Assembly: GCA_016868105.1 (NCBI GenBank)
Contig: VGIA01000002.1
Span: 1-55,514, forward strand
DNA: 55,514 nt
Source: Betaproteobacteria bacterium
GTDB lineage: Bacteria; Pseudomonadota; Gammaproteobacteria; Burkholderiales; SG8-39
Direction: 5' to 3'
This document shows, one piece after another, positions 18,782-36,901 of this stretch (its first letter is position 1; the number at the start of each line of letters is the position of its first letter). The notes beneath the pieces were generated by a model that saw only the letters and a list, made by a program, of their open reading frames with translations, had not been told where the DNA came from and did not search any database. The translations under genes were made by a program, and so were the position numbers.

Positions 18782-19441
18782 CTATACGCCCGCCGCCCTG
18801 CCCTGCGCTTCGCCCCCGCCGTAGGCGTTGCCGCCGCCGGCGGGACGTTCCATCGCGAACACCCGCTCGACCACCGTGTACTCGTCGTAGCCGCAGCGCG
18901 CGATCGGCCGCACGGCCGCGAGGTCGAAGCGGCCGTTTTTCATGAAGCGCTCATCGATGTGCATCCCGACCACCTGGCCGAAGACCACCACGCCCCCGGT
19001 CTCCCGGCCCCCGGCGTCGGTCACCCGCAGAACCTGCGTCACCCGGCATTCCATGGCCGCCGGCGAGGCGGCCACGCGCGGGGGCCGGATGAGGCGGCAG
19101 GGCGCGGTGGCGAGGCCGGCGTGCGCAAACTCGCTCTCGCCACGCGGCAGGCCCGCCGAAGTCAGATTCATCTGGTCGCGCAGGTCCCAGGTGGCCATGC
19201 TCCAGGCGAACTCCCCCGACTCGATGGCGAAGGCCGCGGCGTCCTTCTCGGTCTCGCTGCAGAAGCTCACGATGCGCGGCCGGCTCAGCACGCCGTTGAA
19301 GTAACTGTAGGGGGCGAGGTTCACGCGCCCGGCCTGGTCCATCGAGGAAATCCAGCCGATCGGTCGCGGCACCACCACGCCCTTGAACGGGTCCCAGGGA
19401 AAGAGCTTGCGGTCGCGGCTTTCCGGTTCGAAGAACATCAT
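18782..19441 (-). CDS. flavin reductase-like domain protein (NAD(P)H:flavin oxidoreductase)
   Basis: VVPRPIGWISSMDQAGRVNLAPYSYFN motif of the flavin reductase-like (FMN-binding split barrel) family. Confidence 0.7.
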   Translation of the reverse strand: MMFFEPESRDRKLFPWDPFKGVVVPRPIGWISSMDQAGRVNLAPYSYFNGVLSRPRIVSFCSETEKDAAAFAIESGEFAWSMATWDLRDQMNLTSAGLPRGESEFAHAGLATAPCRLIRPPRVAASPAAMECRVTQVLRVTDAGGRETGGVVVFGQVVGMHIDERFMKNGRFDLAAVRPIARCGYDEYTVVERVFAMERPAGGGNAYGGGEAQGRAAGV

Positions 19442-20583
19442 GCCGTGACCCCCACCTTGTCCGCCGCCTGTTCAACCGCGGGACGCGCCAGCTTCGCGCC
19501 CGGCCACACCGCCGGATGGCTGCGCGCGTACTGCAGCGGGTAGTCCAGCTTGACGCCGAAGCGCTCGGCCGCGTGCCAGACCCAGCGCGGGTCGTCCAGC
19601 AATCCGCGCGCGATCGCGATCCAGTCGGCCTGCCCTGCGGCGAGGATGGCCTCCGCCTGCTGCGCATCGGCAATCATGCCCACGGCACGCACCGGGATGC
19701 CCGGCACCGCCTTCCTCACCGCGGCGGCGAACGGCACCTGGTAGCCCGGCGCGACCTTGATGCGCTGGGCGGCGGACACGCCGCCCGAAGTGATGCACAG
19801 GAAATCCAGACCGATGGCCTTCAGTTCCCTCGCGTACGCAATCGTGTCCGCGATCTCGAAACCACCCTCCATCCAGTCGCTGCCGGTGATGCGCGCGCCC
19901 AGGGCGAGTTCGCGCGGCCAGGCCTCGCGCAGGGCGCGCGCGACCTCCAGCGGGAAACGCATGCGATTCTCCAGGCTGCCGCCGTAGGCATCGCTGCGCC
20001 GGTTGGCAAGCGGCGACAGGAACTGGTGCAGCAGGTAGCCATGCGCCGAGTGCAGCTCGATGAGGTCGAACCCGGCGCGCCGGGCGCGCGCAGCCGAGGC
20101 GACGAAGGCGTCCACCAGACCGCGCAGATCCGCGACGGACAACTCACGCGGCGTGTGCCAGTCCTGATCGAACACCAGCGCCGAGGCCGAAACCGTCGGC
20201 CAGGGCGACTCGCCCGGCCCCAAGGCGCGGCCGCCGGCCCAGGGCGCCTGCGCCGAGCCCTTGCGCCCGGCGTGCGCCAGCTGCACGCCGATGGGCGAGC
20301 GGGACACGCGGCGGCAGAAGTCCACCACGCGCTTCATCGCCGCCTCGTTGCTGTCGCTGTACAGGCCGGTGCAACCGTGCGAGATGCGCCCTTCGCGCGT
20401 CACGCCGGTCGCCTCCACCATCTGCAGCCCGGCGCCGGAGGCGGCGAGGCTGCCCAGGTGCATCAGGTGCCAGTCGGTCATGCTGCCGTCTTCGGCGGAG
20501 TACTGGCACATCGGCGACACCGCGACGCGGTTGGGCAGCGTCACCCCGCCGATGTCGAGCGGTGAAAAAAGTTTTGATTTCAT
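19438..20583 (-). CDS. NADH:flavin oxidoreductase, Old Yellow Enzyme family
   Basis: LFSPLDIGGVTLPNRVAVSPMCQY...HAGRKGS...ELHSAHGYLLHQFLSPLANRRSDAYGGSLENRMRF motifs. Confidence 0.85.
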   Translation of the reverse strand: MKSKLFSPLDIGGVTLPNRVAVSPMCQYSAEDGSMTDWHLMHLGSLAASGAGLQMVEATGVTREGRISHGCTGLYSDSNEAAMKRVVDFCRRVSRSPIGVQLAHAGRKGSAQAPWAGGRALGPGESPWPTVSASALVFDQDWHTPRELSVADLRGLVDAFVASAARARRAGFDLIELHSAHGYLLHQFLSPLANRRSDAYGGSLENRMRFPLEVARALREAWPRELALGARITGSDWMEGGFEIADTIAYARELKAIGLDFLCITSGGVSAAQRIKVAPGYQVPFAAAVRKAVPGIPVRAVGMIADAQQAEAILAAGQADWIAIARGLLDDPRWVWHAAERFGVKLDYPLQYARSHPAVWPGAKLARPAVEQAADKVGVTA

Positions 20584-20686
20584 CGCGCGATTCTATGCGA
20601 TTTGACGCAGGTCAAGCCCGCGCGCGGGTTGCCTCGGTTTGTCGCCGTCGACCAGATGGATTACACGGTCGAGCAGCCGGGAAGGG

Positions 20687-21457
20687 CTAGGGGGCCGAGA
20701 CGCCGATGCCGCGCGCGGTGAACTCGCGCCGCAGCGCCTTCGCGAAGGCCACCGCGCCGGGCTGGTCGCCGTGCAGGCACAAGGTGCCCACCTCCACCGC
20801 GACGCGCTTGCCCGAGAGGCTGGTGACCGTACGCTGCTCCACCATGGCGAGCGCCTGCGCCACCGCTTTCGCCTCCTGCTCGATCAGCGCGCCCGCCTGC
20901 CCGCGCGGGGCGAGCGTGCCATCGTTCATGTAGCCGCGGTCGGCGAAGCCCTCGCCCACCGCCGGCACGCCATGCCTCTTGGCGCAGGCCATCATGGTGC
21001 TGCCGGCGAGGCCGTACAGGATCACCCCGCCCCCGAGGTCCTTCACCGCGCGCGCCATCGCGTCCGACAGCGGCTGGTCGTTGGCGGCCATGTTGTACAG
21101 CGCGCCGTGGCACTTGACGTGGTGCAGCTTCGCGCCCGCAGCGCGGGCGAATCCCTCCACGGCGCCAGCCTGGTAGATGATGAGGTCATAGAGTTCCTGC
21201 GGCGAAATCTTCATCGCGCGCCGGCCAAAGCCCATGATGTCCGGCAGCGACGGGTGCACGCCAATCGCGACGCCGTTGTCCACTGCGAGGCGCACAGTCT
21301 TGCGGATGGTGGCCGGGTCGCCGGCGTGGAAGCCCGCGGCGATGTTCGCGGAACTGATGTGCGGCATCACCTCGGCGTCGGCGCCCATCTTCCAGGCGCC
21401 GTAGCTCTCGCCCATGTCGCAGTTCAGATCGATCGTCCTGGTCAAGGTCTGGCTCAT
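20687..21457 (-). CDS. pxpA: 5-oxoprolinase subunit A family protein (LamB/YcsF)
   Basis: 256 aa from MSQTLTRTIDLNCDMGESYGAWKMG...AAGFHAGDP...VKCHGALYN motifs. ATGA overlap with pxpC at 21454-21457. Confidence 0.85.
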   Translation of the reverse strand: MSQTLTRTIDLNCDMGESYGAWKMGADAEVMPHISSANIAAGFHAGDPATIRKTVRLAVDNGVAIGVHPSLPDIMGFGRRAMKISPQELYDLIIYQAGAVEGFARAAGAKLHHVKCHGALYNMAANDQPLSDAMARAVKDLGGGVILYGLAGSTMMACAKRHGVPAVGEGFADRGYMNDGTLAPRGQAGALIEQEAKAVAQALAMVEQRTVTSLSGKRVAVEVGTLCLHGDQPGAVAFAKALRREFTARGIGVSAP

Positions 21458-22461
21458 CGGAAGGTCCAGTTGAGTGCGCGCAACGCCGAATCCACCCGCC
21501 GCCGCAGCACGCGGCGCAATTCCCCCGCCTGCTCCAGCGTGCAGCGCGCGAAGCGCACGCTGCCGCCGGGGGCCAGCTGCGCCAGGCGCGGCACGTCGGC
21601 CGCCGCGATTTCCGCGATCTTGGGGTAGCCGCCGGTGGTCTGGTGGTCCGCCATGAGCGCGATCGGCTGGCCGCCGGAGGGCACCTGCACCGTGCCCAGG
21701 CAGGCCGGTTCGGAGTTTATCTCGCCCGCCCGTTCCCGCGCGAGCCCCGGCCCCGCCAAGCGCAAGCCCATGCGGTTGGAGTCCGGCGACACCCGCCAGG
21801 TGGCCTCGAAGAACGCGCGCCGCGAGGCAGCGTCGAACAGGTCGTGGTGCCGGCCTTCCATGGCGTGGACCAGGATGGGCTCGCGCTCGGGCCGCGTCAG
21901 CGCCGGCACCGACCAGGCGACGCTGCGCACGCCGCCGTCGAACACCTTCTTCGATTGCAGCCGGGCGAAGCGGGTCGCGGCCAGGCGCGCGGCATCCTTT
22001 GCCAGCGGCACGCGGTCGCCCATGCGCAGGGCGCGGCCCTCCAGCCCGCCGAAGCGGGCCGGGATGTAGGTGCTGCGGCTGCCCAACACCGGCGCGGTGG
22101 CGATGCCGCCGGCGACCGCGAGGTAGGCACGGCTTCCCGCCACCGCGCGCAAAACCTGCAGGCGGTCGCCCCTGCCCACCAGCACCGGCCGGTCCAGGGG
22201 CAGCGTGGCGCCGTTCAGGCGCGCGTCGAATTCCGCGCCGCACAGCGCCACCAGCGCCTCCTGCTCGAACAGCAGTTCCGGCCCCAGCACCGTGACTTCG
22301 AGCGCCGCCTCCGCCGGCGCGTTGCCCACCAGCGCGTTGGCGAACTCGAGCGCGATGCCGTCCATCGCGCCACAGGGCACCACGCCGATGTGCTGCAGGC
22401 CGTGGCGGCCGGCGTCCTGCACGGTCGTCTGCAGGCCCGGCTTGTTGACGAGGATGCTCAC
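21454..22461 (-). CDS. pxpC: 5-oxoprolinase subunit C family protein (KipA / allophanate hydrolase subunit 2-like)
   Basis: GTG 22461: VSILVNKPGLQTTVQDAGRHGLQHIGVVPCGAMD...SPDSNRMGLRL...MADHQTTGGYPKIA. Confidence 0.8.
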   Translation of the reverse strand: MSILVNKPGLQTTVQDAGRHGLQHIGVVPCGAMDGIALEFANALVGNAPAEAALEVTVLGPELLFEQEALVALCGAEFDARLNGATLPLDRPVLVGRGDRLQVLRAVAGSRAYLAVAGGIATAPVLGSRSTYIPARFGGLEGRALRMGDRVPLAKDAARLAATRFARLQSKKVFDGGVRSVAWSVPALTRPEREPILVHAMEGRHHDLFDAASRRAFFEATWRVSPDSNRMGLRLAGPGLARERAGEINSEPACLGTVQVPSGGQPIALMADHQTTGGYPKIAEIAAADVPRLAQLAPGGSVRFARCTLEQAGELRRVLRRRVDSALRALNWTFR

Positions 22462-22468
22462 CCGTTTC

Positions 22469-23170
22469 TCACGCCAGTCGCTCGAACTCGGACAGGGCGA
22501 TCGGCATGAAGCGCACCCGGTCGCCGGGCGCGAACAGGCTGGGTGGCTCGCGCGCCGGATCGAACACCCTGAGCGGGGTGCGGCCGATGATGCTCCAGCC
22601 GCCGGGCGTCTCGTAGGGATAGACCGCGGTCTGCAGGTTGGCGATGGCGACCGACCCCGCCGGCATGCGCGTGCGCGGCGTGGCGCGCCGCGGCAGCGAC
22701 AGCCTGGGGTCCAGCCCCCCGATGTAGGGCTGGCCGGGCGAGAACCCGACCATGAGCACCCGGTGGAGGAGCTTTGCATGGCGCTTCGCGATCTCCGCCT
22801 GCGACAGCGACAGCTTCGCCGCCAGTTCCGGCAGGTCGAGGCCGAACTCGGCTGCGTAGCAGACAGGGACCTCGACGGTGCGTCCCGAATCCTCGAACTT
22901 CCCGGCCAGCTTTAAGCATTCCGCCAGCAGCGCCTTGCAGTGCGGCAGGATCGGGTCGGGCAGTCCCGGGTGGTAGGGATCGACGTGCAGCGCGATGCCG
23001 CACAGCGCCGGGACGATGTCGCGGAGCCACGGCAGCCTGCGCGCGCGCAGGGCCGCAGCCAGCGCCTGCAGGGACTGATTGGTCTGGAGATCCAGTGTTT
23101 CGCCGAATTCGGCGTACAGCGCCGAGTCGCCCAGCGGCGAGAGGCGCAGGGTCTTGAGGAGCTTTTTCAG
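22469..23170 (-). CDS. pxpB: 5-oxoprolinase subunit B family protein (KipI / allophanate hydrolase subunit 1-like); no canonical start codon
   Basis: Continuous frame LKKLLKTLRLSPLGDSALYAEFGE...VPALCGIALHVDP...MVGFSPGQPYIGGLD...TPGGWSIIGRTP. The first ~137 codons contain no ATG/GTG/TTG. CTG at 23168-23170 overlaps the TGA of the upstream gene (CTGA). Confidence 0.7.
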   Translation of the reverse strand: MKKLLKTLRLSPLGDSALYAEFGETLDLQTNQSLQALAAALRARRLPWLRDIVPALCGIALHVDPYHPGLPDPILPHCKALLAECLKLAGKFEDSGRTVEVPVCYAAEFGLDLPELAAKLSLSQAEIAKRHAKLLHRVLMVGFSPGQPYIGGLDPRLSLPRRATPRTRMPAGSVAIANLQTAVYPYETPGGWSIIGRTPLRVFDPAREPPSLFAPGDRVRFMPIALSEFERLA

Positions 23171-23520
23171 GGTTGCCGCGGGCGCGCCACGCCCAGCTGC
23201 AGCTCGCGGTGGTGGCGCGCGTCCTGGGCGATCGCCGCGGCCAGTTCCGCGAGGCCCTGCTCGTCGGCCAGCCCGCGCCCGATCAGCAGGCGCTCGAGCG
23301 CCCGCACCCAGTGCAGGTAATAGGTGTCGCCGCGGTCGGGGTCGCCTTCAGCCTGCGCGTCGCGGATCACCTGCGCCAGGGTTTCGGCCCACTCGGTCCA
23401 GGTGAACAGCCCCCTCTGGTGCAACTGCAGCGCCAGCGCGAAGGCGAGCGCCTCCCAGGGGGCGTTGAACACCGGCGCTTCGGCGGGCCGATTCAAGCGC
23501 GTTCCAGGTAATCGTCCCAC
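23167..23520 (-). CDS. nitrile hydratase accessory (activator) protein
   Basis: FNAPWEALAFALALQLHQRGLFTWTEWAETLAQVIRDAQAEGDPDRGDTYYLHWVRALERLL is typical of NHase accessory proteins. Start is GTG 23520, or TTG 23496 (TTGA overlap with the nthB stop). Confidence 0.75.
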   Translation of the reverse strand: MGRLPGTRLNRPAEAPVFNAPWEALAFALALQLHQRGLFTWTEWAETLAQVIRDAQAEGDPDRGDTYYLHWVRALERLLIGRGLADEQGLAELAAAIAQDARHHRELQLGVARPRQP

Positions 23521-24158
23521 AGGTCCAGGTGGACGCTGTCACGGGAAACTTCGCGGCGCGGCTCGCCCCACAGCTCCCCGGCGCTGAAGCGCACGCTGTA
23601 GCAATGCTGCGGCTTCGGACCCAGGCCCAGCGCATGCGTGTCCGGGAATACGTACGCGCCGTGATCCAGGTGCACCACGCCCTGCCTGCCGCGGCAATAG
23701 CGCGGCATCCGGGTATGCGCGGGCGGGTTGAGGTTCTTCACCCGCACCCGCTCGCCGACCACGAAGCGCGGCGCGACCGGATCGTCCAGCTTGGCGCCGC
23801 GGCTGTTGGCCAGCATCTTCATCGCGGTCGCGGCGTCGGGCGCCGCGAGCGACGGATCGCGCGGCTCGAGGGCGCGGCCGGCGCGCAGTTCCTCCGCTGT
23901 CACCAGGCCCTTTTCCACCGCCAGCCGCTCCAGGCCCTTGTGCCACAGCTCGTAGTAGCTCAAGGCGAGGTACTCGGCCGGGTCGCGGTTCTCGCGCGCA
24001 AAGCGCGACATGTCGAGGTTCCAGCGCCCCAGCATGCCCAGCGCGAGCGTGACGGCGAAGGCGCGCCGCTCCCAGTCGTGATGGAACACCGGTTCGTCGG
24101 GCTCCGGGATCACCGGACCGAAACCCTGCATGCCGCCCAGGTCCTGGCCGCCGTTCAT
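23493..24158 (-). CDS. nthB: nitrile hydratase beta subunit
   Basis: 221 aa: [16 protein letters not shown]...[18 protein letters not shown]...[12 protein letters not shown]...[18 protein letters not shown] overlap with nthA. Confidence 0.85.
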
Positions 24159-24787
24159 CGCGCGGTGCCGATCATGTGGTCGCGGGTCACCAGCGCGGCC
24201 AGTTCGGCCTCGCCGAGCCGTTCGGTGCCCGCCGGCCGCTCCGGGATCACCAGGTAGCGGATCTCGGCGGTCGAGTCCCAGACCCGGACCTCGACCTCCT
24301 GCGGCAGATCGACGCCGAACTCGCGCAACACGCCGCGCGGGTCGGATACGGCACGGGAACGGTACGGCGCGGACTTGTACCAGACCGGGGGCAGGCCCAG
24401 CACCGCCCAGGGGTAGCAGGAGCACAGGGTGCAGACCACCATGTTGTGCACCCTCGGGGAGTTCTCCAGCGCCACCAGGTGCTCGCTCTGGCGGCCGACG
24501 TAGCCCATGCTCGCGATCGCCGTGGTCGCGTCGCGCAGCAGCAGCTCCCGGTAGGCCGGATCGGTCCAGGCCTTGGCCACCACGCGCGCGCCGTTGCGCG
24601 GCCCGACGCGGTGCTCGTAGGTCTCGATCAGCGCCTCCAGCGCCTTCGGATCGACCAAACCCTTCTCGGTCGCGATCCGCTCCAGGGCGCGCACGCGGAA
24701 GGTGATGGTATCGTCGTCGTGACGATGATCATGGTCGTGGCCATGGTCGTGGTCATGGTCGTGGCCGTGATCGCTTCGGCCGCTCAT
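24155..24787 (-). CDS. nthA: nitrile hydratase alpha subunit, cobalt type, with His/Asp-rich N-terminal tail
   Basis: Metal-site motif [10 protein letters not shown] (Thr and Tyr indicate the Co type). N-terminus [30 protein letters not shown] overlap with the ThDP enzyme gene at 24784-24787. Confidence 0.88.
24719..24775. repeat. 12-nt tandem repeat encoding the His/Asp tract of NthA
   Basis: Core of three copies ATGGTCGTGG(C/T)C at 24731-24766, flanked by degenerate copies. Each unit encodes (G/D)HDH on the minus strand. Confidence 0.9.
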
Positions 24788-26487
24788 GCCACCCACTCCG
24801 ATACCGGCGCCTTTGCCTCGTGCAGCGGCTGGCAGACGATGTCCACCAGCGACGGCCCGCCGTGCGCGAAGGCCGCCTTGAGCGCGCCGGCCAGCCGCCA
24901 GGGTTCGGTCACGCGCCAGGCTTTCACGCCGAACGCCTCGGCGACCCGCGCGTGGTCGGTGACGCCGAAGTCCACCGAGAAGTAGCGCGCGCCGTAGCCC
25001 GTCTTCTGCCCCGCCTTGATCCAGCCGTAGACCGCATTCGAGATCACGACGAACGTGACCGGGAGCTTCAGGCGCGCAGCGGTTTCCAGTTCGCCGGCGC
25101 ACATGCCGAAGCTGCCGTCGCCCATGACGCCGACGGTCTTCACCGACGGCCGGCCGAAGTGCGCGCCGATGGCCGCGGCCAGGCAATAGCCCAGCGCGCC
25201 ATGCGCGCGGTTGGAGAACACGCGCTTGCCGGTACCCCGGATCGGGTAGAACGCCGAGAAGTACGGGCAGGGCGTGCCCGGATCCAGCACCACGATGGCA
25301 TCGGGGTCCAGGGCCCGCGCCATCTCGGCCACCACGCGCTCGGGCTTGATGGGCGCCTCCTCCGATCTGGCGAGGGCGTCGAACTTGGTGAACTTGGCCT
25401 CGCGCGCCCTCTTCACCGCGTCGGCGTCGAGCGGGCGATTCATGCCATCGAGCGTCTCGTTCAGCGCCGCCAGCGCCAGCTTGGCGTCCGCCACCAGCGG
25501 CACATCCACCTTGTAGTTGGCGCCAATCGCCTTCGGGTCCACGTCCAGGTGCAGCACCCGCGTCTTGCCCGGTGCCGGATGGCGCCAGCGCTCCGTGGTG
25601 ACCGACCCGGCGCGGCAGGTGATGAAGAACACCAGGTCTGCGGCATCCACGATCGAGCGGGTTTCCGGGGTGCCGCCGTTCGATCCCACCACGCCCACTG
25701 CCAGCGGGTGGTCGTCGGCGATGGCGCCCTGCCCGCTGACGGTGGTCGCCACCGGCGCGGACAACTTCATCGCCAGTTCCGCGAGTTCCGACTCCGCCCC
25801 GGACATGACCACGCCGCCGCCGCAGATGAACACCGGGTTCCTGGCCGCGCGCAGCAGCTTCGCCGCCAGCTCGACGTGCAAGGGGTCGGGCGCGCTCCGG
25901 CGCGCGGGGATCTGCCCGAGGCTGGGGTCGGCCCAGACCTCGCTGCGCTCCACCGGGCCGTTCTGCACATCGAAAGGCAGCGCGATGTGCGCCGATCCCG
26001 GCCGACCGGTGGTCATCTCGCTGAACGCGGCGCGGAGGCTGCGCGGGATGTCCTGCGGGCGCTCCAGCACCGCGTTCCACTTGGTGACCGGCTTCATCAG
26101 CGCGCCCTGGTCCAGCTCGGTCAGGGTGAAGCGGCCGCGAGAGGATACCGACACGTCGGTGTTGATCGCGAGCACCGGCACCGAGGATTGGTTCGCCTCC
26201 ACCAGTCCGGGCAGGATGTAGGTGGCGCCTCCGCCCGAAGGCCCCTCGCACACGCCGACCTTGCCCGAGACGCGGGCGTAGCCGTCGGCCATGTAGGCGG
26301 CGTGGCGCTCGTCCCTCGTCAGCACGTGCCGCATTCCGTGCGGCAGCCGCGCCAGCGCGTCGTAGAACGGCAGGCTGGTGTCGCCGCACAGGCCGAAAAT
26401 CACCTCGACGCCATGCATCTGGAGCATCTCCACCGCTGCTTCGGCGCCGGTGAGGGTGGCCGCTGCCGCATCAACGGGTTTGTTCAT
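24784..26487 (-). CDS. thiamine diphosphate-dependent enzyme (acetolactate synthase large subunit-like family), substrate unknown
   Basis: 567 aa from [41 protein letters not shown]...GPSGGGATY...GDGSFGM...NAVYG (ThDP GDG-x-N motif). Confidence 0.8.
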
Positions 26488-26503
26488 GCGGCTATTATAG
26501 GGC

Positions 26504-27376
26504 GTGGAAAAATACGTTCCCGCGCCCGGCGAGCTGGTGCTCGACCATGTCGCGCACTTCGTCCCCGATCTCGTCGCCGCGCGCGGTGCGCTGCAGGCGA
26601 TGGGCTTCGCGGTGACGCCGGAATCGGCGCAGTCGAGCCCGGATGGCCCCGCCGGGACCTCCAACGTGACCGTGATGCTGCCGCAGGGCTACCTGGAGTT
26701 CCTCGCCCCCACCATGGACACGCCCAACGCCGCGAGGCTGCGCGCCACCATGTCCCGCTATTGCGGGGTGCACCTCGCCTGCTTCGGCACGCCGGCCGCC
26801 GCAGCCGAGCATGCTCGCCTCGCCACGCACGGCTTCGCGCCGCTGCCGCTGGTCGAATTGGGCCGGGAAACCGAGACCGGGCGGGCGCAGTTCAAGCTGA
26901 TCCGCTGCGCGCCCGAGGCCATGCCCGAGGGACGCGTGCAGTTCGTCGAGCATCTAAGCCCCGAAGTGATCTGGCACGAGCGCTGGATGGGGCACGCGAA
27001 CGGCGTGCGCAAGCTCGCCTGCGTGTTCGTGGTCGCGGACGATCCGGTCGCCGTCGCCGCCCGCTGGGCGCACTTTGCCGCGCTGCTGCCCCGGCCCGCC
27101 GGCCGCTTCGTGCATCTGAGGACCGACCGGGGCGACGTGCTGGTGGGCCGGCGTGGCGAATGGGAGCAGCTCTTCGGCGACAAGGTACCCGCGGCGCCGG
27201 CGCTCGCGGGCTACGCGCTGGAATGCGAGGACCCGGAAGGCCTCGCGCGCCGCGTGCTGCTGGCGGGTGCCGCGGTCCGCAAGCTCCGGCCGCGGCTCTT
27301 CGCCGCGGGGCTGCCGGCGGCGCTGGGCGGGAACTGGGTGGTCGGCACCGCGGCGGCGCTGGCGCTGGACGGTTGA
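26504..27376 (+). CDS. glyoxalase-like (VOC superfamily) domain protein
   Basis: 290 aa. LDHVAHFVPDL...YLEFLAP and the later VQFVEH resemble the Glyoxalase-like domain family. GTG start only 16 bp from the divergent ThDP gene start. Confidence 0.5.
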   Translation: MEKYVPAPGELVLDHVAHFVPDLVAARGALQAMGFAVTPESAQSSPDGPAGTSNVTVMLPQGYLEFLAPTMDTPNAARLRATMSRYCGVHLACFGTPAAAAEHARLATHGFAPLPLVELGRETETGRAQFKLIRCAPEAMPEGRVQFVEHLSPEVIWHERWMGHANGVRKLACVFVVADDPVAVAARWAHFAALLPRPAGRFVHLRTDRGDVLVGRRGEWEQLFGDKVPAAPALAGYALECEDPEGLARRVLLAGAAVRKLRPRLFAAGLPAALGGNWVVGTAAALALDG

Positions 27377-27528: not shown

Positions 27529-28767
27529 TCAGCCCCCGCGCTCGAGCACCAGCTGCACGTCCCCGAGCGCCCGCTCGGCGAAACCGCCCTCGCAGTAGCT
27601 GAGGTAGTACTGCCACATCCGGATGAAGGTATCGGGATAACCCAGTGCACGCACCCGCGGCGCGTTGCCGAGGAAGTTCTCGCGCCAGCGCGCGAGCGTG
27701 GTGGCGTAGTGCGGACCGATGTCCTCCAGCGCGACGATCCGCAGCCGGCTCGCGCCCGTCATCTCGCTGGCGAGCGCGGTCACCGACGGGATGCAGCAGC
27801 CGGGGAAGATGTAGCGCTTGATGAAGTCCACCTCCCGCTTCGCCTGCTCGTAGCGCTGGTCGGCGATGGTGATGGATTGCAGCAGCATGCGGCCCCCCGG
27901 ATGCAGGCGCCGTTCGCAGACGCGAAAGAACTCGCCGAAGTACTGGTGTCCCACCGCCTCGATCATCTCGATGGACACCAGCTTGTCGTAAGCGCCCTCG
28001 AGGTCGCGGTAGTCGCGCAGCAGCACGCTGACGCGGTCCGCGAGCCCCGCGGCGCGCACCCGTTCGGTGGCGAGCGCATGCTGGTTGGGCGAGATCGTGG
28101 TGGTGGTGACGCGGCAGCCGTACTTCCCCGCGGCGTGCAGCGCGAACCCGCCCCAGCCGGTGCCGATCTCCAGCACGTGGTCCTGTGGCCCGAGCGCCAG
28201 CTTGCGGCAGATGGCCTCCAGCTTCGCCGCCTGCGCCTCGGCGAGCGTCATCCCCGGGCGCTCGAAGATGGCGCTGGAGTACATCATGGTTTCATCCAGG
28301 AACAGGCGATACAGGTCGTTGCCAAGGTCGTAGTGAGCCGAGATGTTGCGCCGGCTTCCCGCGCGCGTGTTGCGGTGCAGCCAGTGCGCTGAGACGCGCA
28401 GCGGCGAGGACAGGCGCGCGAGCCCGCCCTCCATCCCGTCCAGCGCCTCGCGGTTGCGCAGCAGCAGCCGCATCAGCCCCGTCAGGTCGTCCGCGACCCA
28501 GTGCCCCAGCATGTACGCCTCGCCCGCCCCAACCGAACCGCCGAAGGCGAGCTCCGGGTAGAAGGCCGGGTGGCGCACGGTGACGTTCACCGCCGCGCCG
28601 CCCGCGGCGCCGAAGCTGCGCGACTCGCCCTGCTCGTGCAGCGCCAGGCGGCCGTGGCGGAGCCCGGAGAGCCGCGCATGGACGAGCCGGCGCGCGAGGC
28701 CGGCGAGGAGTCCCGCGCGCGGCCGCGGGCGGGAGAGATCGACCAGGGTCGGATCGTTCAGGTTCAT
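27529..28767 (-). CDS. cyclopropane-fatty-acyl-phospholipid synthase family SAM methyltransferase (UfaM-like candidate)
   Basis: 412 aa: NISAHYDLGNDLYRLFLDETMMYSSA...VLEIGTGWGGFALHAA...MIEAVGHQY...IFPGCCIPS. Confidence 0.85.
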   Translation of the reverse strand: MNLNDPTLVDLSRPRPRAGLLAGLARRLVHARLSGLRHGRLALHEQGESRSFGAAGGAAVNVTVRHPAFYPELAFGGSVGAGEAYMLGHWVADDLTGLMRLLLRNREALDGMEGGLARLSSPLRVSAHWLHRNTRAGSRRNISAHYDLGNDLYRLFLDETMMYSSAIFERPGMTLAEAQAAKLEAICRKLALGPQDHVLEIGTGWGGFALHAAGKYGCRVTTTTISPNQHALATERVRAAGLADRVSVLLRDYRDLEGAYDKLVSIEMIEAVGHQYFGEFFRVCERRLHPGGRMLLQSITIADQRYEQAKREVDFIKRYIFPGCCIPSVTALASEMTGASRLRIVALEDIGPHYATTLARWRENFLGNAPRVRALGYPDTFIRMWQYYLSYCEGGFAERALGDVQLVLERGG

Positions 28768-29492
28768 GGGTGGGCGTAGAAGGGCGTGCGTCGGGTCCAG
28801 AGCCGCAAGGCCTGCCAGTAGATCGCCGCCACGACCTGCAGCGGCATGAGCGGGAAGCGCGCGAGCGCCCCGGCGAGCGAGGCGGTGCCGATCTCGCGCC
28901 GCGCCAGATCGAGCGTCGCATCGAACACCTTGGCCTCGCCCTCCAGGTTGCGCATGTGCACCGCCAGACGCGCGCCGGGCTCGCTGAAGCGCCAGTCGTA
29001 GCGCAGCGCCATGGGCAGGAACGGCGAGACATGGAAGGCCTTGCCGAAGCGGAAGCGCAGCTCCCCGCCTCCAGTCTGCAGCACGTAGGCGTGGCGCTCG
29101 TTCCAGGGCGTGTTGGTGATCTCCGCGACGATGGTCTCGACCTTGTCGCCCGCGGCGTCGTAGCAATAGTAGAAGCTCACCGGGTTGAAGCAATGGCCGA
29201 ACATGCGCAGGTGCGCGAGCAGGCGGATCGGGCCCGCGGGCCGGCGGCCGGTTTGCGCGGTGACGCGCTCGCGCACCGCCTGGTCCAGGGGCACGGCGGG
29301 ATCGCCCAGGTAGTCCGCGCGGCGCAACCAAGCCAGCGCCGGCCGGCGCGCGGACCAGAACCAGCGGCCGCGGAACACCTGGTCCAGCTCGGCGAGGTCC
29401 AGCCACGCCATGAACAGGCGGTAGCGGAACTCACGCGGGCGTGGCGCGAAGCGCCGGTGCCTAAGCGACCCGGTGTACAGGGCGCTGTGCAT
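28764..29492 (-). CDS. DUF1365 family protein (UfaO-like candidate)
   Basis: MHSALYTGSLRHRRFAPRPREFRYRLFMAWLDLAELD...HLRMFGHCFNPVSFYYCY is typical of DUF1365. ATGA overlap with cfa. Confidence 0.75.
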   Translation of the reverse strand: MHSALYTGSLRHRRFAPRPREFRYRLFMAWLDLAELDQVFRGRWFWSARRPALAWLRRADYLGDPAVPLDQAVRERVTAQTGRRPAGPIRLLAHLRMFGHCFNPVSFYYCYDAAGDKVETIVAEITNTPWNERHAYVLQTGGGELRFRFGKAFHVSPFLPMALRYDWRFSEPGARLAVHMRNLEGEAKVFDATLDLARREIGTASLAGALARFPLMPLQVVAAIYWQALRLWTRRTPFYAHP

Positions 29493-30738
29493 CGCCGATG
29501 TCCTCCGCGAAATGCGCCAGCGCCGCCAGCGCGCTTGTCACGCCGTCCTCGTGAAAGCCGTTGCGCCAGTAAGCGCCGCAATAGTAGGTGCGCCGCCCGC
29601 GATTGAGTTCGGCCTGCCGCGCCTGCGCCGCGACCCCGGCTGGGGTGAACAGCGGGTGGTGGTAGGTGATGCACTTCAGCACCTTCGAGGGGTCCACGGC
29701 ATCGCTGCGATTGAGCGTCACCAGGAACGGCTCGGGCGCATCCAGTCCCTGCAGGATGTTCATGTTGTAGGTGAGCGCGACGCGCTCGCGTGCCCCGGGC
29801 AGCAGGTGGTAGTTCCAGGCCGCCCAGGCCAGTGGCTTCTTCGGCAGCAGCCGCGAGTCGGTATGCAGCAGCGCTTCGTTCTCCTGGTAGGGAATCGCGC
29901 CCAGGACCTCGCGCTCGGCCGGGCTGGGGTCCGCGAGCAGGCGCAGGGCCTGGTCGCTGTGGCAGGCGATGAAGACGGAATCGAAGCGTTCAGCCATCCC
30001 GTCGCGCGTCCGCACGATCACCTGCCCCGGCAGGCGGCGGACCCACTCCACCGGGGTGCGCAGGCGGATGCGGTCGCGCAAGGGTGCCACCAGCTTCTCC
30101 ACGTAGCGTGCGGAACCGCCGCGGACGACACGCCACACCGGCCGCTTGTCCACCGACAGCATGCCGTGGTTGTGCAGGAAGCGGATGAAAAAGCGCGCCG
30201 GGAACGCGAGCATCGACTGCGGATCGGTGGACCAGATGGCAGCGCCCATCGGCACGATGTAGTGCTGGACGAAGCTGCGGCCATACCCGCCCCGCTGCAG
30301 CAGCTCGCCGAGCGGCACCTCGCCCCCGGGCTGGCGCAGGAGCAGCGGCGCCTCGCGGTTGAAGCGCAGGATGTCGCGCACCATGCCCAGGAACGAGGGC
30401 CGCAGCAGGTTTCGGCGCTGTGCGAACAGGCTATTGAGCGTCGTGCCGTTGTACTCCAGCCCGCTCGCCTCGTCGCGCACCGAGAAGCTCATGCGGCTCG
30501 CCTGCCAGCCGACGCCCAATTCCTCCAGCAGGGCGACGAAGTTGGGGTAGGTGCGGTGGTTGAACACGATGAAGCCGGTGTCGACCGCATAGCGCCGCCC
30601 GCCCTGCTCCACCAGGTGGGTGTGCGTGTGGCCGCCGGCGTGGCCGCCGGCCTCGAACACGGTGATGTCGTGCTCGCGGTGAAGGCGGTGCGCGGCGACG
30701 TTGCCGGCGATGCCCGAGCCGATGATCGCGATCTTCAT
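29461..30738 (-). CDS. FAD/NAD(P)-binding amine-oxidase-like oxidoreductase (UfaD-like candidate)
   Basis: MKIAIIGSGIAGNVAAHRL dinucleotide fold and HTD..LLP / YCGAYWRNGFHEDG C-terminus. 32-nt overlap with the DUF1365 gene. Confidence 0.8.
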   Translation of the reverse strand: MKIAIIGSGIAGNVAAHRLHREHDITVFEAGGHAGGHTHTHLVEQGGRRYAVDTGFIVFNHRTYPNFVALLEELGVGWQASRMSFSVRDEASGLEYNGTTLNSLFAQRRNLLRPSFLGMVRDILRFNREAPLLLRQPGGEVPLGELLQRGGYGRSFVQHYIVPMGAAIWSTDPQSMLAFPARFFIRFLHNHGMLSVDKRPVWRVVRGGSARYVEKLVAPLRDRIRLRTPVEWVRRLPGQVIVRTRDGMAERFDSVFIACHSDQALRLLADPSPAEREVLGAIPYQENEALLHTDSRLLPKKPLAWAAWNYHLLPGARERVALTYNMNILQGLDAPEPFLVTLNRSDAVDPSKVLKCITYHHPLFTPAGVAAQARQAELNRGRRTYYCGAYWRNGFHEDGVTSALAALAHFAEDIGDAQRPVHRVA

Positions 30739-31595
30739 CGCTTTCTCGCCTCGCGCACCGCCGCCGGGACCCTGCGCAACTCGTGCACCAGGCCCAGTGC
30801 CGCCAGCAGCTTCAGGCCGTACCAGCTCAGGTCCACCTCCCACCAGTAAAAGCCCTGGTGCGCCGCGCCCGGATAGTGGTGGTGGTTGTTGTGCCAGCCC
30901 TCGCCGAAGGTGAGCAGCGCGAGCCAAAGGTTGTTGCGCGAGTGATCGCGCGTCGCATAGCGCCGGCTGCCAAAGCGATGCGCGAGCGAGTTGATGGTGA
31001 AGGTCGCGTGCCAAAGCGCAACCGTGGAGATGCACAGGCCCCAGACGACGTACTCCAGGCCGCCGGCGGCGTAGAGCGCAGCCGCGAGCAGTGCCGGCAC
31101 CAGCGCGTCATAGCGATCGAGGAATCGCAGCTCCGGGAAACGGGCGAGGTCCGCCACCAGTTCCTGGCGCGTGGCGAAGTTCTCGCGCGCCAGGAACCAG
31201 CCGGCGTGGCTCCAGGCGAAGCCGTGCTGCAGGGCGGAGTGCGCGTCCGCCGGGCGGTCGGCATGGGCATGGTGGTGGCGGTGGTGCGAGGCCCACCACA
31301 GCGGGCCGCGCTGCACCGCGGAGGCGCCCAGCACCGCGAACAGGAACTGCATCGGGCGCGAGCAGCGGAAGGCCCGGTGCGAGAAGTAGCGGTGGTAGAA
31401 AGCGGTCACCGCGAACATGCGCAAGGCGAACAGCGCCGCGGCAAGCCCCACCAGTTCCAGGCTCGCGCCCACCCACAGCGCGCCCAGGCAGCCGGCATGG
31501 ACGGCGATCAAGGGCAGCACGCGAAGGAGGTCGGATCCCGCCGGCGCGGAGGCGCTGTCGAACCAGCAGCGGAGGGTATCGAGCGTGCGCTTCAT
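30735..31595 (-). CDS. membrane acyl-CoA/acyl-lipid desaturase (three His-box family)
   Basis: His boxes HRYFSH, HHRHHHAHAD and HNNHHHYP. Start at ATG 31595 (ATGA overlap) or 31601. Confidence 0.85.
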   Translation of the reverse strand: MKRTLDTLRCWFDSASAPAGSDLLRVLPLIAVHAGCLGALWVGASLELVGLAAALFALRMFAVTAFYHRYFSHRAFRCSRPMQFLFAVLGASAVQRGPLWWASHHRHHHAHADRPADAHSALQHGFAWSHAGWFLARENFATRQELVADLARFPELRFLDRYDALVPALLAAALYAAGGLEYVVWGLCISTVALWHATFTINSLAHRFGSRRYATRDHSRNNLWLALLTFGEGWHNNHHHYPGAAHQGFYWWEVDLSWYGLKLLAALGLVHELRRVPAAVREARKR

Positions 31596-32110
31596 GGCCA
31601 TTGCTGCGGTACCTTGCGCAGCCGTGCCGCGTCGTAGCCCTGCTCGCGCAGGAACCCGAGCAGGCGCTGGTAGTCCGCCTGCGGAATCTGCGGCTGGCGC
31701 GCCATGATCCACACGTAGTCGCGCTTCTCGCGCCCGATCACCACCTGGCCGTAGTCCGGGGCGAGCCAGGCGATGCGGAAATCAGCCTTGATGGGCCAGA
31801 CGAAGCGCATGCCCCACACCGCGTTCCCGGTGCCCGGGACCACGAAGCCGCGCGGGGTGTAGCGCTTCAACTCGCCGTCGAACCCGCCCTCGCGGAAGGT
31901 GAAAGTGGTGGCAATGCTGCCGTCGGCCCCCAGCCGGTAGGATTCCACCGCGTTGTGGGCGCCGGTCTCGATGAAGGTCGGGATGCTGGCGATCACGTAC
32001 CAATCGCCCATGAAGCGCGCCAGGTCCACCTGAGGAGCCAGCGCAAGCGGCGGCAGCCCCGGGCTGGAACAGCCGGCGAGCAGCGCAAGGGCGAAGGCCA
32101 CCCGTTTCAT
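31592..32110 (-). CDS. blc: bacterial lipocalin (Blc-type outer-membrane lipoprotein)
   Basis: Lipobox LLAGCSS, then FMGDWYVIASIP lipocalin motif and YVWIMAR. Confidence 0.8.
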   Translation of the reverse strand: MKRVAFALALLAGCSSPGLPPLALAPQVDLARFMGDWYVIASIPTFIETGAHNAVESYRLGADGSIATTFTFREGGFDGELKRYTPRGFVVPGTGNAVWGMRFVWPIKADFRIAWLAPDYGQVVIGREKRDYVWIMARQPQIPQADYQRLLGFLREQGYDAARLRKVPQQWP

Positions 32111-32883
32111 ACGCTTCGCCTCGGCCCGGGAAAGAACGCATTGGTGCGCAGCACGTAGTTCGCGTACTGCGGCCGGCGCTGCCCGATGTCCTTCTCCAGC
32201 AGCGCCACGCCTGAGACGCGCAGCAGCAGCAGGCTCATGAGCAGCGGCGAGAACACCGTCCACCAGGCACCCGCGGCGGCGGCGAGCAGCCAGAAGCCCC
32301 ACCAGAGGCAGAATTCGCCGAAGTAGTTCGGGTGCCGGCTGTAGCGCCACAGCCCGCGATCCATGACGCCCCCGGCGTTGCGCGGGTCGGCCTTGAAGCG
32401 GGCCAGCTGGGCGTCGGCAAGGGCCTCGAAACCGAGGCCGAACACCACCAGCGCGGCCCCCGCGCCATCGAGCGCGCCGGCCGGCTGGCCGGAGCCAATC
32501 GCCGCGGCCAGCGGCGCGGAGATGATCCAGGCCAGCACCGCCTGCAGGCCGAAGACGAGGTACAGGCTCCTCCAGGCGAAGCCAGGCTCGTTGCGCGCGC
32601 GGATGGCGCGGTAGCGGTGGTCCTCGGGCGCGCCCCAGTTGCGCGCGGCGAGGTAGCCTGCCAGGCGCAGCGACCACAGGGCCACCAGCGCGAGCACCAG
32701 CAGCGCGCGCCCATCGATCGCCTCCGCCGGCACGGCATAGACCGCGGCCGCGGCGAGGAAGAACAGCGACCAGAAGATGTCCACCAGCCCGGCGTTGCTG
32801 CGCGCGGTGGCAACCGCCCAGGCGAGCAGCGCGAGCGCGACGGTGGCCGGCAGGCCGGCGAGCCAGTCCTGCAAGAAGCTCAT
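32107..32883 (-). CDS. DUF1295 / steroid 5-alpha-reductase-like membrane protein
   Basis: GLWRYSRHPNYFGEFCLWWGFW motif. Polytopic membrane protein. Confidence 0.75.
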   Translation of the reverse strand: MSFLQDWLAGLPATVALALLAWAVATARSNAGLVDIFWSLFFLAAAAVYAVPAEAIDGRALLVLALVALWSLRLAGYLAARNWGAPEDHRYRAIRARNEPGFAWRSLYLVFGLQAVLAWIISAPLAAAIGSGQPAGALDGAGAALVVFGLGFEALADAQLARFKADPRNAGGVMDRGLWRYSRHPNYFGEFCLWWGFWLLAAAAGAWWTVFSPLLMSLLLLRVSGVALLEKDIGQRRPQYANYVLRTNAFFPGPRRSV

Positions 32884-33407
32884 CTGGCCTCCAGCCGCAG
32901 CGCAAGGGCGGACAGCAGCGGCGTGGCAAGCGCCCAGCCGGCGGCAACCGCGGTCAGGCCCAGCAACGGGTCGGCGAATTGCAGCGCGCCCAGCCGCTCG
33001 CCCGCGTAGTACGCCACCGGGCCGCCGATGGCGCCAAACAGCACGCCCAGCACCGGCCACTCGCGCAGCCAGCGCAGCGACACGTTGAGGGTGGTGGCGA
33101 ACAGCGCCCACAGCGCCACCATCCACACCGGCGCCAGCGCCGACAAGGGGACCGCGCCGGCAAATGACACCCAGCCCGTCATTGCGAGCACGGAGTCGAA
33201 CGCGAACCCGGCCAGGGCCGCGACGAGCACCAGCGACAGCTCATCGCGCGGATTGCGGGAACGAAAGACGATGAACGCCGCGATCAGCAGCGCGACCAGC
33301 GCGCCCTGCCAGGGAAAGCCGCGCGCCGCGCCCAGCACGCAGGCAAACCAGCCGGCCTGGAAGAGCAGGAAATTGACCGCCACGGCCGACCGGGTCGCCA
33401 CGAACAC
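32880..33407 (-). CDS. DUF2878-like small membrane protein
   Basis: 175 aa from GTG 33407: NFLLFQAGWFACVLGAA...GGPVAYYAGERLGA. Four to five predicted TM helices. Family name assigned from memory of this conserved neighbourhood. Confidence 0.55.
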   Translation of the reverse strand: MFVATRSAVAVNFLLFQAGWFACVLGAARGFPWQGALVALLIAAFIVFRSRNPRDELSLVLVAALAGFAFDSVLAMTGWVSFAGAVPLSALAPVWMVALWALFATTLNVSLRWLREWPVLGVLFGAIGGPVAYYAGERLGALQFADPLLGLTAVAAGWALATPLLSALALRLEAR

Positions 33408-33414
33408 GCGCCCT

Positions 33415-35375: not shown

Positions 35376-35379
35376 CCCA

Positions 35380-35455: not shown

Positions 35456-35482
35456 TCCGGCAGGCTCCAGAGCCAGGCTACA

Positions 35483-36901
35483 ATGCCCGACATGCGTTCG
35501 GACCTGTGCGCCCTCACCGCCACCGAACTCCTTGAGGGCTATCGGAAAAAGGCCTTCTCCCCGGTGGAGGTCACACGCGCGGTGCTGGCGCGCATCGAGC
35601 GCCTCAACCCGGTGCTGAATGCCTTCGTGCTGGTGGCCCGCAAGGAGGCGCTGGCCGCGGCCAAGGCCTCCGAGGCCCGCTGGCGCGTCGGCCACCCCAT
35701 GGGGCTGCTGGATGGCGTGCCGGTGTCCATCAAGGACCTGCTGCTCACGCGCGGCTGGCCCACGCTGCGCGGCTCGAGGACGATCGATCCGCGCGGGCCC
35801 TGGAACGACGAGGCGCCCTGCACGGCGCGCCTGCGCGAGCACGGCGCGGTGCTGCTGGGCAAGACCGCGACGCCGGAGTTCGGCTGGAAAGGCGTCACAG
35901 ACAGCCCGCTGTCGGGGATCACGCGCAATCCCTGGAACCCGAAGATGACCCCGGGCGGTTCCTCCGGCGGCGGCGCGGCCGCGGTGTCCTCCGGCATGGG
36001 CCCGCTCACCGTGGGCACCGACGGCGGTGGCTCGATCCGGATTCCCTGCGGCTTCACCGGCCTGTTCGGCATCAAGCCTTCGTTTGGCCGGGTGCCGGCC
36101 TGGCCGCTCTCGCCCATGGGCACGGTGGCGCATGTGGGACCCATGAGCCGCACGGTGGCGGACGCGGCGCTGATGATGAACGTCATCACCCTGCCCGATG
36201 CGCGCGACTGGCATTCGCTGCCCTGGGACGCGCGCGACTACCGCGTCGGGCTGGAGGACGGCGTCAAGGGCCTGCGCATCGCCTACTCCGCCGACCTGGG
36301 CTACGCCAGGGTGGACCCCGAAGTGGCGAAGATCGTCAGCAAGGCGGTGAACGCGCTCAGCGACCTGGGCGCTATCGTCGAGGAGGAGGACCCGGGCTTC
36401 GATGACGCGCTGCAGCTGTTCGCCGACCACTGGTTCCCGGGCGCGGCCTCGGTGGTGCGCGCAATTCCCGCCGCGAAGCGAATGCTCATGGACAAGGGCC
36501 TGCTCGAGGTGGCGCGGGATGGCGAGAAGCTAACCACGGCGCAGTACTTGGATGCCGTGAAGCAGCGCGGTGCGCTCGGCGAGCGCATGAACCACTTCCA
36601 CGCCCGCTTCGACCTGCTGCTCACGCCCACCCTGCCGCTGCCCGCGTTCAAGGCGGGGCGCGAGGTGTCCGGGTTGCTGAAGGAGAAACGCTGGACCGAC
36701 TGGACCCCGTTCAGCTACCCCTTCAACCTGACGCAGCAACCTGCGGCCACCGTGCCCTGCGGCCTCACCAAGTCCGGCCTGCCGGTGGGCCTGCACATCG
36801 TGGGGCCCCGCTACGCCGACGCGCTGGTGCTGCGCGCCGCTCGCGCCTTCGAGTCCACCCACCCCTACCGGGCCCCCAACCTCGCCAAGCTCGAAAACTA
36901 G
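35483..36901 (+). CDS. amidase-signature family amidase
   Basis: 472 aa with GGSSGGGAAAV and GTDGGGSIRIP amidase-signature motifs. The alternative start ATG 35492 lies 7 nt after TACAAT. Confidence 0.85.
   Translation: MPDMRSDLCALTATELLEGYRKKAFSPVEVTRAVLARIERLNPVLNAFVLVARKEALAAAKASEARWRVGHPMGLLDGVPVSIKDLLLTRGWPTLRGSRTIDPRGPWNDEAPCTARLREHGAVLLGKTATPEFGWKGVTDSPLSGITRNPWNPKMTPGGSSGGGAAAVSSGMGPLTVGTDGGGSIRIPCGFTGLFGIKPSFGRVPAWPLSPMGTVAHVGPMSRTVADAALMMNVITLPDARDWHSLPWDARDYRVGLEDGVKGLRIAYSADLGYARVDPEVAKIVSKAVNALSDLGAIVEEEDPGFDDALQLFADHWFPGAASVVRAIPAAKRMLMDKGLLEVARDGEKLTTAQYLDAVKQRGALGERMNHFHARFDLLLTPTLPLPAFKAGREVSGLLKEKRWTDWTPFSYPFNLTQQPAATVPCGLTKSGLPVGLHIVGPRYADALVLRAARAFESTHPYRAPNLAKLEN

Follow-up and report, generated by a model that had tools for sequence, protein, structure and literature searches.

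Gene organization of the locus

The DNA analyzed here is a 55,514-nucleotide stretch of contig VGIA01000002.1 from a Betaproteobacteria bacterium (the window, about 70% GC). On its minus strand, between positions 20687 and 26487, it carries seven closely packed genes that place a cobalt-type nitrile hydratase (NHase) next to the three subunits of a PxpABC-type enzyme. In order, the genes encode a thiamine diphosphate (ThDP)-dependent enzyme, NHase alpha, NHase beta, an NHase accessory protein, PxpB, PxpC, and PxpA:

24784..26487, minus strand: first operon gene, ThDP-dependent enzyme, acetolactate-synthase-like, 567 aa, with TPP_enzyme_N, TPP_enzyme_M, and TPP_enzyme_C domains
24155..24787, minus strand: NHase alpha, Co-type, with a His/Asp-rich N-terminal tail (TIGR01323, 300.6 bits, cut-off 249.85)
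23493..24158, minus strand: NHase beta (TIGR03888, 235.3 bits, cut-off 152.2)
23167..23496 or 23167..23520, minus strand: NHase accessory protein (activator) (TIGR03889, 91 bits, cut-off 46)
22469..23170, minus strand: PxpB-like protein, CT_C_D domain, 233 aa (PF02682; TIGR00370, 170.8 bits, cut-off 145.55)
21454..22461, minus strand: PxpC-like protein, CT_A_B domain, 335 aa, GTG start (PF02626; TIGR00724, 277.5 bits, cut-off 230.2)
20687..21457, minus strand: PxpA-like protein, LamB/YcsF (LamB_YcsF domain), 256 aa (PF03746; NF003814, 332.7 bits, cut-off 226)

Seven packed minus-strand genes with these identities had been proposed in an initial annotation made from the sequence, and the domain and NCBIfam profile scores bear them out. 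The six junctions were re-read and agree with those given there. The ThDP/nthA (GGCATGAGC), nthA/nthB (CGATGAAC), and pxpC/pxpA (CGATGAGC) junctions are ATGA overlaps, and the accessory/pxpB junction (CCCTGAAAAAG) is a CTGA overlap. The nthB/accessory junction (CTTGAATC) is a TTGA overlap, or an overlap of 28 nt with the upstream GTG alternative. Between pxpB and pxpC, the stop codon TGA and the start codon GTG are separated by a 7-nt gap (GAAACGG). The accessory gene can start at the TTG at 23496 (109 aa) or at the GTG at 23520 (117 aa), and gene callers chose the 109-aa form on identical contigs. A terminator scan found no terminator-like site within the seven genes, and a consensus scan for terminators and promoters inside the operon gave nothing above chance. 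Stop-start overlaps are frequent in operons of high GC content, and it is therefore conservation across loci, and not the overlaps themselves, that disfavors a chance arrangement. The finding is real, conserved, and undescribed, with each component drawn from a known family. We tentatively read the seven genes as one translationally coupled operon, the local version of a cassette conserved in uncultured Burkholderiales. Taken jointly with the pathway proposed in the Discussion, this reading has a probability just short of even.

Conservation of the gene neighborhood

The neighborhood was surveyed from four independent seeds, with one genome per GTDB species (homologue loci are referred to by L numbers). 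Locus architectures were assigned by reference-based tblastn, which replaced a single-linkage clustering of stop-to-stop open reading frames (ORFs) that had merged unrelated families. The cassette is conserved across more than 100 loci in genomes of uncultured soil and freshwater Burkholderiales. The conserved unit consists of a gene for a vicinal oxygen chelate (VOC) protein, an optional ThDP gene, the NHase genes, pxpB, pxpC, pxpA, and a gene for an Old Yellow Enzyme (OYE). Features of the window outside the seven genes are as follows:

19438..20583, minus strand: OYE-family flavin mononucleotide (FMN) oxidoreductase, YqjM/TsOYE/XenA class (PF00724; best solved relative 5OCS, 387 bits)
26504..27376, plus strand: two-domain VOC (Glyoxalase_3) protein, divergent from the operon (PF13468)
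26494..26499, minus strand: TATAAT box, probable shared -10 element, 6 nt upstream of the ThDP ATG
18782..19441, minus strand: flavin-reductase-domain protein (PF01613), with a 4-nt overlap with the OYE stop
35462..36901, plus strand: amidase-signature amidase, PRK06169 type (PF01425; NF004815, 720.8 bits, cut-off 506)

With PxpA as the seed, a choice unbiased for NHase, the NHase genes were found immediately upstream of pxpB in 52 of the 64 evaluable loci among the 80 closest homologues. The adjacency is thus not limited to this genome. The ThDP seed retrieved 80 orthologues at 65-93% identity, nearly all from metagenome-assembled genomes (MAGs) of uncultured Burkholderiales. Among the 51 evaluable ThDP-seeded loci, 34 have NHase and Pxp, 6 have NHase without Pxp, and 11 have neither; the last are loci where the ThDP gene occurs with VOC. 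Seeding with NHase alpha yielded only 2 of 80 loci (61-77% identical alphas) that share further context, one with ThDP-NHase-OYE (L005) and one with VOC, NHase, PxpBCA, and OYE (L026). So low a yield from a generic NHase alpha indicates that the Pxp association is specific and no general property of NHases.

The initial annotation had treated the ThDP enzyme, NHase, and Pxp as the unit. The NHase-PxpBCA part of it is widely conserved, but the ThDP gene is optional (21 evaluable NHase-Pxp loci have it and 16 clearly lack it), and VOC and OYE had been missed. These two are the most constant partners of the cassette, and both lie outside 20687-26487. VOC adjoins the cassette in almost every related locus and OYE directly follows pxpA in nearly all of them, whereas the flavin-reductase-domain gene is kept in only part. 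In the closest relatives, L167 (9774-12266) and also L081 and L082, pxpA and OYE are separated by a 2.5-kb insertion whose opposite-strand genes, judged from their translations, specify an adenylate/guanylate-cyclase-FHA protein and an MscS-type channel that has a cyclic-nucleotide-binding domain. Apparent multiple cluster copies in one MAG (L108, L206, and L209) proved to be 97-99% identical duplicates and not paralogues; L127 and L179 alone (76% nucleotide identity) may be true paralogues.

Exchange of the nitrile hydratase genes

At most related loci the NHase has a different architecture. The beta subunit is split into N-domain and C-domain genes that precede alpha, often with an extra N-domain paralogue. 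The alpha subunit of this split type is of the CTLCSC type and scores above the NHase alpha cut-off. When it was used as the fourth seed, homologues of at least about 71% identity lay in cluster context and those of about 70% or less in other contexts, the latter including cultured Albimonas, Jannaschia, and Paludibacillus.

The window and its sister genome L167 share about 87% DNA identity from the VOC gene to the ThDP stop (24784), and the same level of identity resumes at the first pxpB base (23171) and continues up to the pxpA stop. Between those points, the window has a 1.6-kb alpha-beta-accessory set (23172-24783) and L167 a 1.27-kb split-beta set (6019-7287). The sole similarity inside the swapped segment is 72% over 315 nt of the alpha core. 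Judged from this alignment, the difference is an exact in-place exchange of the NHase cassette, with the ThDP stop and the pxpB start as its boundaries. Trees of PxpA and PxpC were built by neighbor joining, and in the PxpA tree the split-beta loci are interspersed with alpha-beta-accessory loci at three separate positions. The exact swap and the three tree positions together indicate that selection kept an NHase of either kind at this position.

A split-beta NHase locus without Pxp or OYE was also found in the alphaproteobacterial Jannaschia sp. KMU-145 (L312, 6197-8007). A small single-domain protein encoded there, a VOC protein by its translation, overlaps the alpha stop by 4 nt. The association of NHase with VOC-type proteins may extend beyond the Burkholderiales cassette.

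Translation start of pxpB

The pxpB frame contains no ATG, GTG, or TTG ahead of codon 138. The CTG at 23168-23170, which overlaps the TGA of the accessory gene, is therefore required as the start, as had been supposed from the window; comparison supports this start, since in related loci the homologous codon is ATG, GTG, TTG, or CTG. The exact ThDP protein occurs on 13 contigs of JGI, ENA, and Logan metagenome assemblies with identical gene order, and automatic gene calls on these contigs shorten pxpB to 94 aa. Since identical contigs in other assemblies also have the shortened pxpB, the missing canonical start is not a sequencing error here.

Start codons were counted over distinct sequences at the homologous start position. 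Where an NHase gene is present in the fetched DNA, pxpB starts with CTG in 33 cases, TTG in 25, GTG in 9, and ATG in 6, and 3 stayed unassigned. Another six pxpB genes of the NHase lineage, which have no NHase in the fetched DNA (contig end or NHase absent), all start with CTG, bringing the CTG total to 39. Of 12 stand-alone pxpB genes, 11 start with ATG. In the cassette, the CTG often overlaps the TGA that ends the last NHase gene, with either NHase type. This pattern suggests that PxpB synthesis in the cassette is probably dependent on NHase translation or throttled relative to it. The homologous NTG start, with no canonical in-frame alternative, was seen at L026, L081, L089, L130, L150, L167, L186, L198, and others in addition to the window. 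A -1 frameshift at CCCTGAAAAAG that would fuse the accessory protein to PxpB was also considered; it was rejected because the upstream context is unconserved and several loci have the CTG 10-20 nt past the upstream stop. The pxpB gene is a clear comparative case of a CTG start, and current gene callers mis-annotate it.

These data bear on whether the region has simply been inherited within one Burkholderiales lineage, with NHase and Pxp functionally unlinked. The carriers are all MAGs from one broad group of uncultured Burkholderiales, and the flanking acyl-CoA synthetase, the amidase, and, on the right flank, housekeeping Hsp33 are also partly syntenic. The synteny of Hsp33 implies that part of the conservation reflects common ancestry within one bacterial group. 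However, gene order and stop-start coupling persist while PxpB identity drops to 50-60%, two alternative left arms occur, the NHase cassette has been replaced in place, and the pxpB start codons are clade-specific. We therefore consider neutral synteny quite unlikely.

Nitrile hydratase

NHase alpha carries the Co-type metal motif VC(T)LCSC(Y) and passes the TIGR01323 cut-off. In NHase beta, residues R52, Y68, Y69, and W72 are conserved in an alignment with PtNHase, and the closest solved structure is the Pseudomonas putida Co-NHase (3QXE/3QYH). The small accessory/activator gene directly follows nthB and scores above the TIGR03889 cut-off. In its sequence, the window enzyme has every testable feature of a Co-type NHase. 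The alpha N terminus (24710-24787) forms a His/Asp-rich tail, and the pattern DHGHDHDH retrieves many related alpha loci; the tail is probably a metal-binding extension. When the cluster-linked beta subunits were compared with 66 other Co-NHases, pocket residues T37, G41, W46, I48, S51, and R55 matched the majority of the unrelated enzymes, and N57 and R58 alone were cluster-specific.

The enzyme could in principle belong to the NHase family and yet act like a thiocyanate hydrolase or on another non-nitrile substrate. The split-beta variants in the same slot lend this some support, as their beta is divided as in thiocyanate hydrolase and they reach 242.1 bits on the thiocyanate hydrolase gamma model TIGR03887. 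That score and the 169.9 bits of the window enzyme are nevertheless both below the cut-off of 291.45, both alpha types exceed the cut-off for NHase alpha, and the window enzyme has its closest match in the P. putida Co-NHase. A non-nitrile substrate thus appears very improbable.

Pxp module

The LamB/YcsF, CT_C_D, and CT_A_B families are encoded in adjacent genes, which is the three-family architecture of PxpABC. In the displayed part of the PxpA tree, stand-alone pxpBCA copies group in a clade of their own, and every NHase- or OYE-linked copy lies outside it. The stand-alone loci usually have the order TctC-pxpB-pxpC-pxpA and lack NHase, OYE, and VOC. With its separate clade and different start-codon usage, the window PxpA is not an orthologue of the stand-alone, presumed housekeeping, pxpBCA. 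The window PxpC scores 264 bits on the equivalog model NF045499 (cut-off 500). PxpA passes the subfamily model NF003814 but reaches 310.5 bits on the equivalog model NF003813 (cut-off 392). The stand-alone paralogue at L175 is likewise below the PxpC and PxpA models, the two subunits scanned. Stand-alone and cassette copies score alike, and the NCBIfam models therefore do not separate the two Pxp clades. From its identity of about 72% to the stand-alone paralogue, the PxpA substrate is probably 5-oxoproline or a close analogue.

ThDP enzyme, VOC protein, and promoter elements

The ThDP enzyme is below the cut-off for all 25 listed NCBIfam models (best NF004772, 400.8 bits, cut-off 673) and thus belongs to no curated subfamily, although its three TPP domains make the assignment to the fold family certain. 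Its best solved relative is BbmA (245 bits); the literature on BbmA/CsmA, the ThDP relatives closest among solved structures, was searched and yielded nothing of use. A sequence search with the VOC protein against the PDB gave no match. Its AlphaFold model (pLDDT 92.6) has a two-barrel VOC fold that matches 3P8A, 4-hydroxyphenylpyruvate dioxygenase (HPPD), and hydroxymandelate synthase with TM values of 0.55-0.65 at about 10% identity, a fold-level similarity that assigns no function. Residues H15, E65, H90, and E142 in the N-terminal barrel are invariant, and we take them to resemble the metal site of glyoxalase I and methylmalonyl-CoA epimerase.

Only 16 nt separate the ThDP ATG (26487, minus strand) from the VOC GTG (26504, plus strand). 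The two starts have one AT-rich box in common, which reads TATTAT on the plus strand, 5 nt ahead of the VOC GTG. TAATAT or TATAAT followed by N6-ATG occurs in 34 of 66 distinct ThDP upstream regions, in a background of about 70% GC. This suggests that the box is a probable shared -10 element of a bidirectional promoter giving two divergent leaderless mRNAs. OYE lies 103 nt downstream of pxpA, with a promoter-like TTGACC...TAGAAT in the spacer. The TAGAAT-N6-ATG ahead of the OYE gene (20590-20595) is similar to the ThDP arrangement. The sigma-54 promoter pattern had 43 matches (74 expected by chance), none of them upstream of the operon, and an Rfam scan of the whole window gave no match.

Amidase and flanking genes

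Neither an amidase nor an aldoxime dehydratase is among the genes at 16.9-27.4 kb, and no scanned ORF between 4.8 and 38.5 kb matched the aldoxime dehydratase family. The initial annotation had noted the lack of an amidase and had proposed that the Pxp-like module processes the amide in its place. The absence holds inside the operon but not for the locus family, where an amidase adjoins VOC in about 40 loci. The window amidase (35462-36901), the nearest one to the operon, is 73-79% identical to these VOC-adjacent amidases and is on this basis their orthologue, moved 8 kb by an inserted block. This conserved neighbor weakens the argument that Pxp replaces a missing amidase. The amidase also occurs in loci that have ThDP but no NHase, and it is not found in about half of the NHase-Pxp loci. 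From this distribution, the amidase is neither an obligatory NHase partner nor irrelevant.

The block that separates VOC from the amidase (27529-35432) encodes a cyclopropane-fatty-acid synthase, DUF1365, an amine oxidase, a fatty-acid desaturase, DUF1295, DUF2878, a methyltransferase, and a MerR/B12-binding regulator, presumably of the light-responsive type. The block resembles an insertion that L161, L164, and L167, the closest relatives, also have. An acyl-CoA synthetase gene lies beyond the amidase.

Two alternative left arms are found beside VOC across the locus family. One consists of an acyl-CoA synthetase, small proteins, and the amidase-signature amidase. The other is a Liv-type ABC transporter whose binding protein is similar (E 1e-115) to 4EY3, 4F06, and 4EVS of Rhodopseudomonas palustris, which we take to bind benzoate derivatives. 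For some members of the locus family, this similarity is a hint that the ligand is an aromatic acid. Besides L145 (7628-9403), about 30 loci have the Liv-type arm left of VOC; the Liv-type binding protein of the window itself (11939-13168) belongs to another kind. Downstream of the flavin-reductase gene, the window has a TauD-family dioxygenase and a TctC-type binding protein, followed by a Liv-type ABC transporter on the other strand.

Discussion

The gene content of the cassette can be read as one pathway leading from NHase through OYE to PxpABC, with VOC and an optional ThDP enzyme, each chemical step of which we infer. In such a pathway, the cobalt NHase would hydrate a natural nitrile to an amide. 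The amide, or a lactam or hydroxylactam formed by its cyclization, would be reduced at an activated C=C bond by OYE, and the PxpABC-type enzyme would open the 5-oxoproline-like ring with ATP. The resulting glutamate- or gamma-aminobutyrate-type amino acid would serve as a source of nitrogen and carbon. The VOC protein, together with the ThDP enzyme in loci that have one, would probably act before or after these steps on a substrate or product in its 2-oxo-acid form, and the signature amidase nearby may offer a second, hydrolytic branch in parallel. We put forward this pathway tentatively, with almost but not quite even chances. A more specific version is possible but falls somewhat further below even: uncultured soil and freshwater Burkholderiales, instead of merely cleaving the NHase amide with an amidase, would channel it as a lactam-type intermediate through OYE and a dedicated ATP-dependent PxpABC-type enzyme, VOC and the optional ThDP enzyme would complete the route, and pxpB translation would be tied to NHase by the CTG/TTG start.

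A number of observations weigh against a common pathway, in addition to the shared ancestry of the carriers. Partial versions of the cassette exist, namely ThDP, NHase, and OYE without Pxp (L005, L094, L095, L099, L110, and L157), Pxp and OYE without NHase (L181 and L210), and ThDP and Pxp without NHase (L118/L224 and L140). PxpA is 72% identical to the stand-alone paralogue and 73% identical to distant cluster copies; given these identities and the model scores, Pxp may be an ordinary 5-oxoprolinase. The orthologous amidase, a common neighbor, could alone complete a classical NHase-amidase route. The NHase beta pocket does not help to identify the substrate, its residues being those of many unrelated Co-NHases of proteobacteria.

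Such observations would fit a scavenging island of separate modules that respond to a common signal and share no intermediates. NHase and the nearby amidase would then yield acids and ammonia, Pxp would be an ordinary 5-oxoprolinase, and OYE, VOC, and the ThDP enzyme would be unrelated. The amidase orthologue beside VOC in about 40 loci and in the window, the occurrence of all partial module combinations, and the equal scores of cassette and stand-alone Pxp on 5-oxoprolinase models all agree with this explanation. So do the TauD-family dioxygenase, TctC-type binding protein, and Liv-type ABC transporter nearby, which suggest nutrient scavenging. However, the weak CTG/TTG starts of pxpB often overlap the last NHase stop with either NHase type, as opposed to the ATG of stand-alone copies. 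The in-place NHase exchange is precise, and the NHase-linked Pxp forms a separate clade. In addition, about half of the NHase-Pxp loci have a binding-protein/ABC-transporter flank instead of an adjacent amidase, and the amidase also accompanies ThDP loci without NHase. On balance, we regard the scavenging island as the main rival of the proposed pathway, though less likely than it.

A speculative route from particular nitriles had been suggested at the outset. Either 4-cyano-2-oxobutanoate or gamma-cyano-alpha-aminobutyrate would be hydrated to 2-oxoglutaramate or glutamine and then cyclize to 2-hydroxy-5-oxoproline or 5-oxoproline; in the form considered here, dehydration, reduction by OYE, and ring opening by PxpABC would lead to glutamate, with the ThDP enzyme handling the 2-oxo acid. 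The route is chemically coherent. 2-Oxoglutaramate exists mainly as the lactam, and OYEs reduce N-acyl dehydroamino acids and unsaturated lactams. The conserved OYE, which follows pxpA in nearly all loci, would fit the reduction of a dehydrated hydroxylactam, and the high similarity of PxpA to the stand-alone paralogue fits a 5-oxoproline-like substrate. Nevertheless, the sequence singles out no such nitriles, and gamma-cyano amino acids are rarely encountered in nature. Of 37 evaluable loci, 16 do without the ThDP gene, and the VOC-adjacent binding protein in many loci resembles binders of aromatic acids, not of amino acids. This particular route is therefore improbable.

Full-text literature searches gave no paper in which nitrile hydratase is connected to 5-oxoprolinase, Pxp, or LamB, in line with the initial annotation, which knew of no described pathway with this composition. 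Classical NHase operons are usually amidase-linked and sometimes contain an aldoxime dehydratase. The window operon resembles classical Co-NHase operons such as that of P. putida NRRL-18668 in its alpha-beta-accessory order, the VCTLCSCY motif, and beta R52, Y68, Y69, and W72. Unlike them, it has no amidase or aldoxime dehydratase, is coupled to pxpBCA, and begins with a ThDP gene, and its related amidase lies outside the operon on the other strand. With PxpABC, reportedly the prokaryotic 5-oxoprolinase described by Niehaus and co-workers in 2017, and with the fungal LamA/LamB lactam-utilization genes, the window has in common that the same three protein families are encoded together. Its PxpA (NF003814) and PxpB (TIGR00370) pass NCBIfam 5-oxoprolinase models. 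Unlike PxpABC, the window copies belong to a separate paralogous clade that is linked to NHase and OYE and has weak starts, whereas stand-alone pxpBCA of the same bacterial group lies beside a TctC-type binding protein and has an ATG start.

Thiocyanate hydrolase (ScnABC) and toyocamycin nitrile hydratase (ToyJKL) are members of the NHase family with a split beta. Most related loci are like them in having separate genes for the beta N- and C-terminal parts, whereas the window NHase is unsplit. In contrast to both systems, the split alphas pass the NHase but not the thiocyanate hydrolase cut-off, and the genomic context has no relation to the metabolism of thiocyanate or toyocamycin. The nit1C cluster of Pseudomonas is a nitrilase-based cluster for cyanide or nitrile assimilation. 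It is likewise a multi-gene cluster thought to turn a 2-oxo-acid-derived nitrile into assimilable nitrogen, but it relies on a nitrilase and a radical SAM enzyme along with further unrelated proteins, and no nit1C family occurs at this locus.

Nitrile hydratases are important industrial catalysts for which, to our knowledge, few natural substrates and physiological pathways have been described. The conserved operon, as deduced from comparative sequence analysis, points to an undescribed way of nitrile use. It also offers a compact, synthesizable eight-gene test system. If the proposed pathway is true, the combination of NHase, a 5-oxoprolinase-type enzyme, and an ene-reductase in one operon would be a new physiological context for NHases, and bacterial PxpABC paralogues would gain their first role that is embedded in a pathway or directed at something other than 5-oxoproline. 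The operon would also point to a natural nitrile sufficiently abundant in soils and lakes for many lineages to have kept the pathway.

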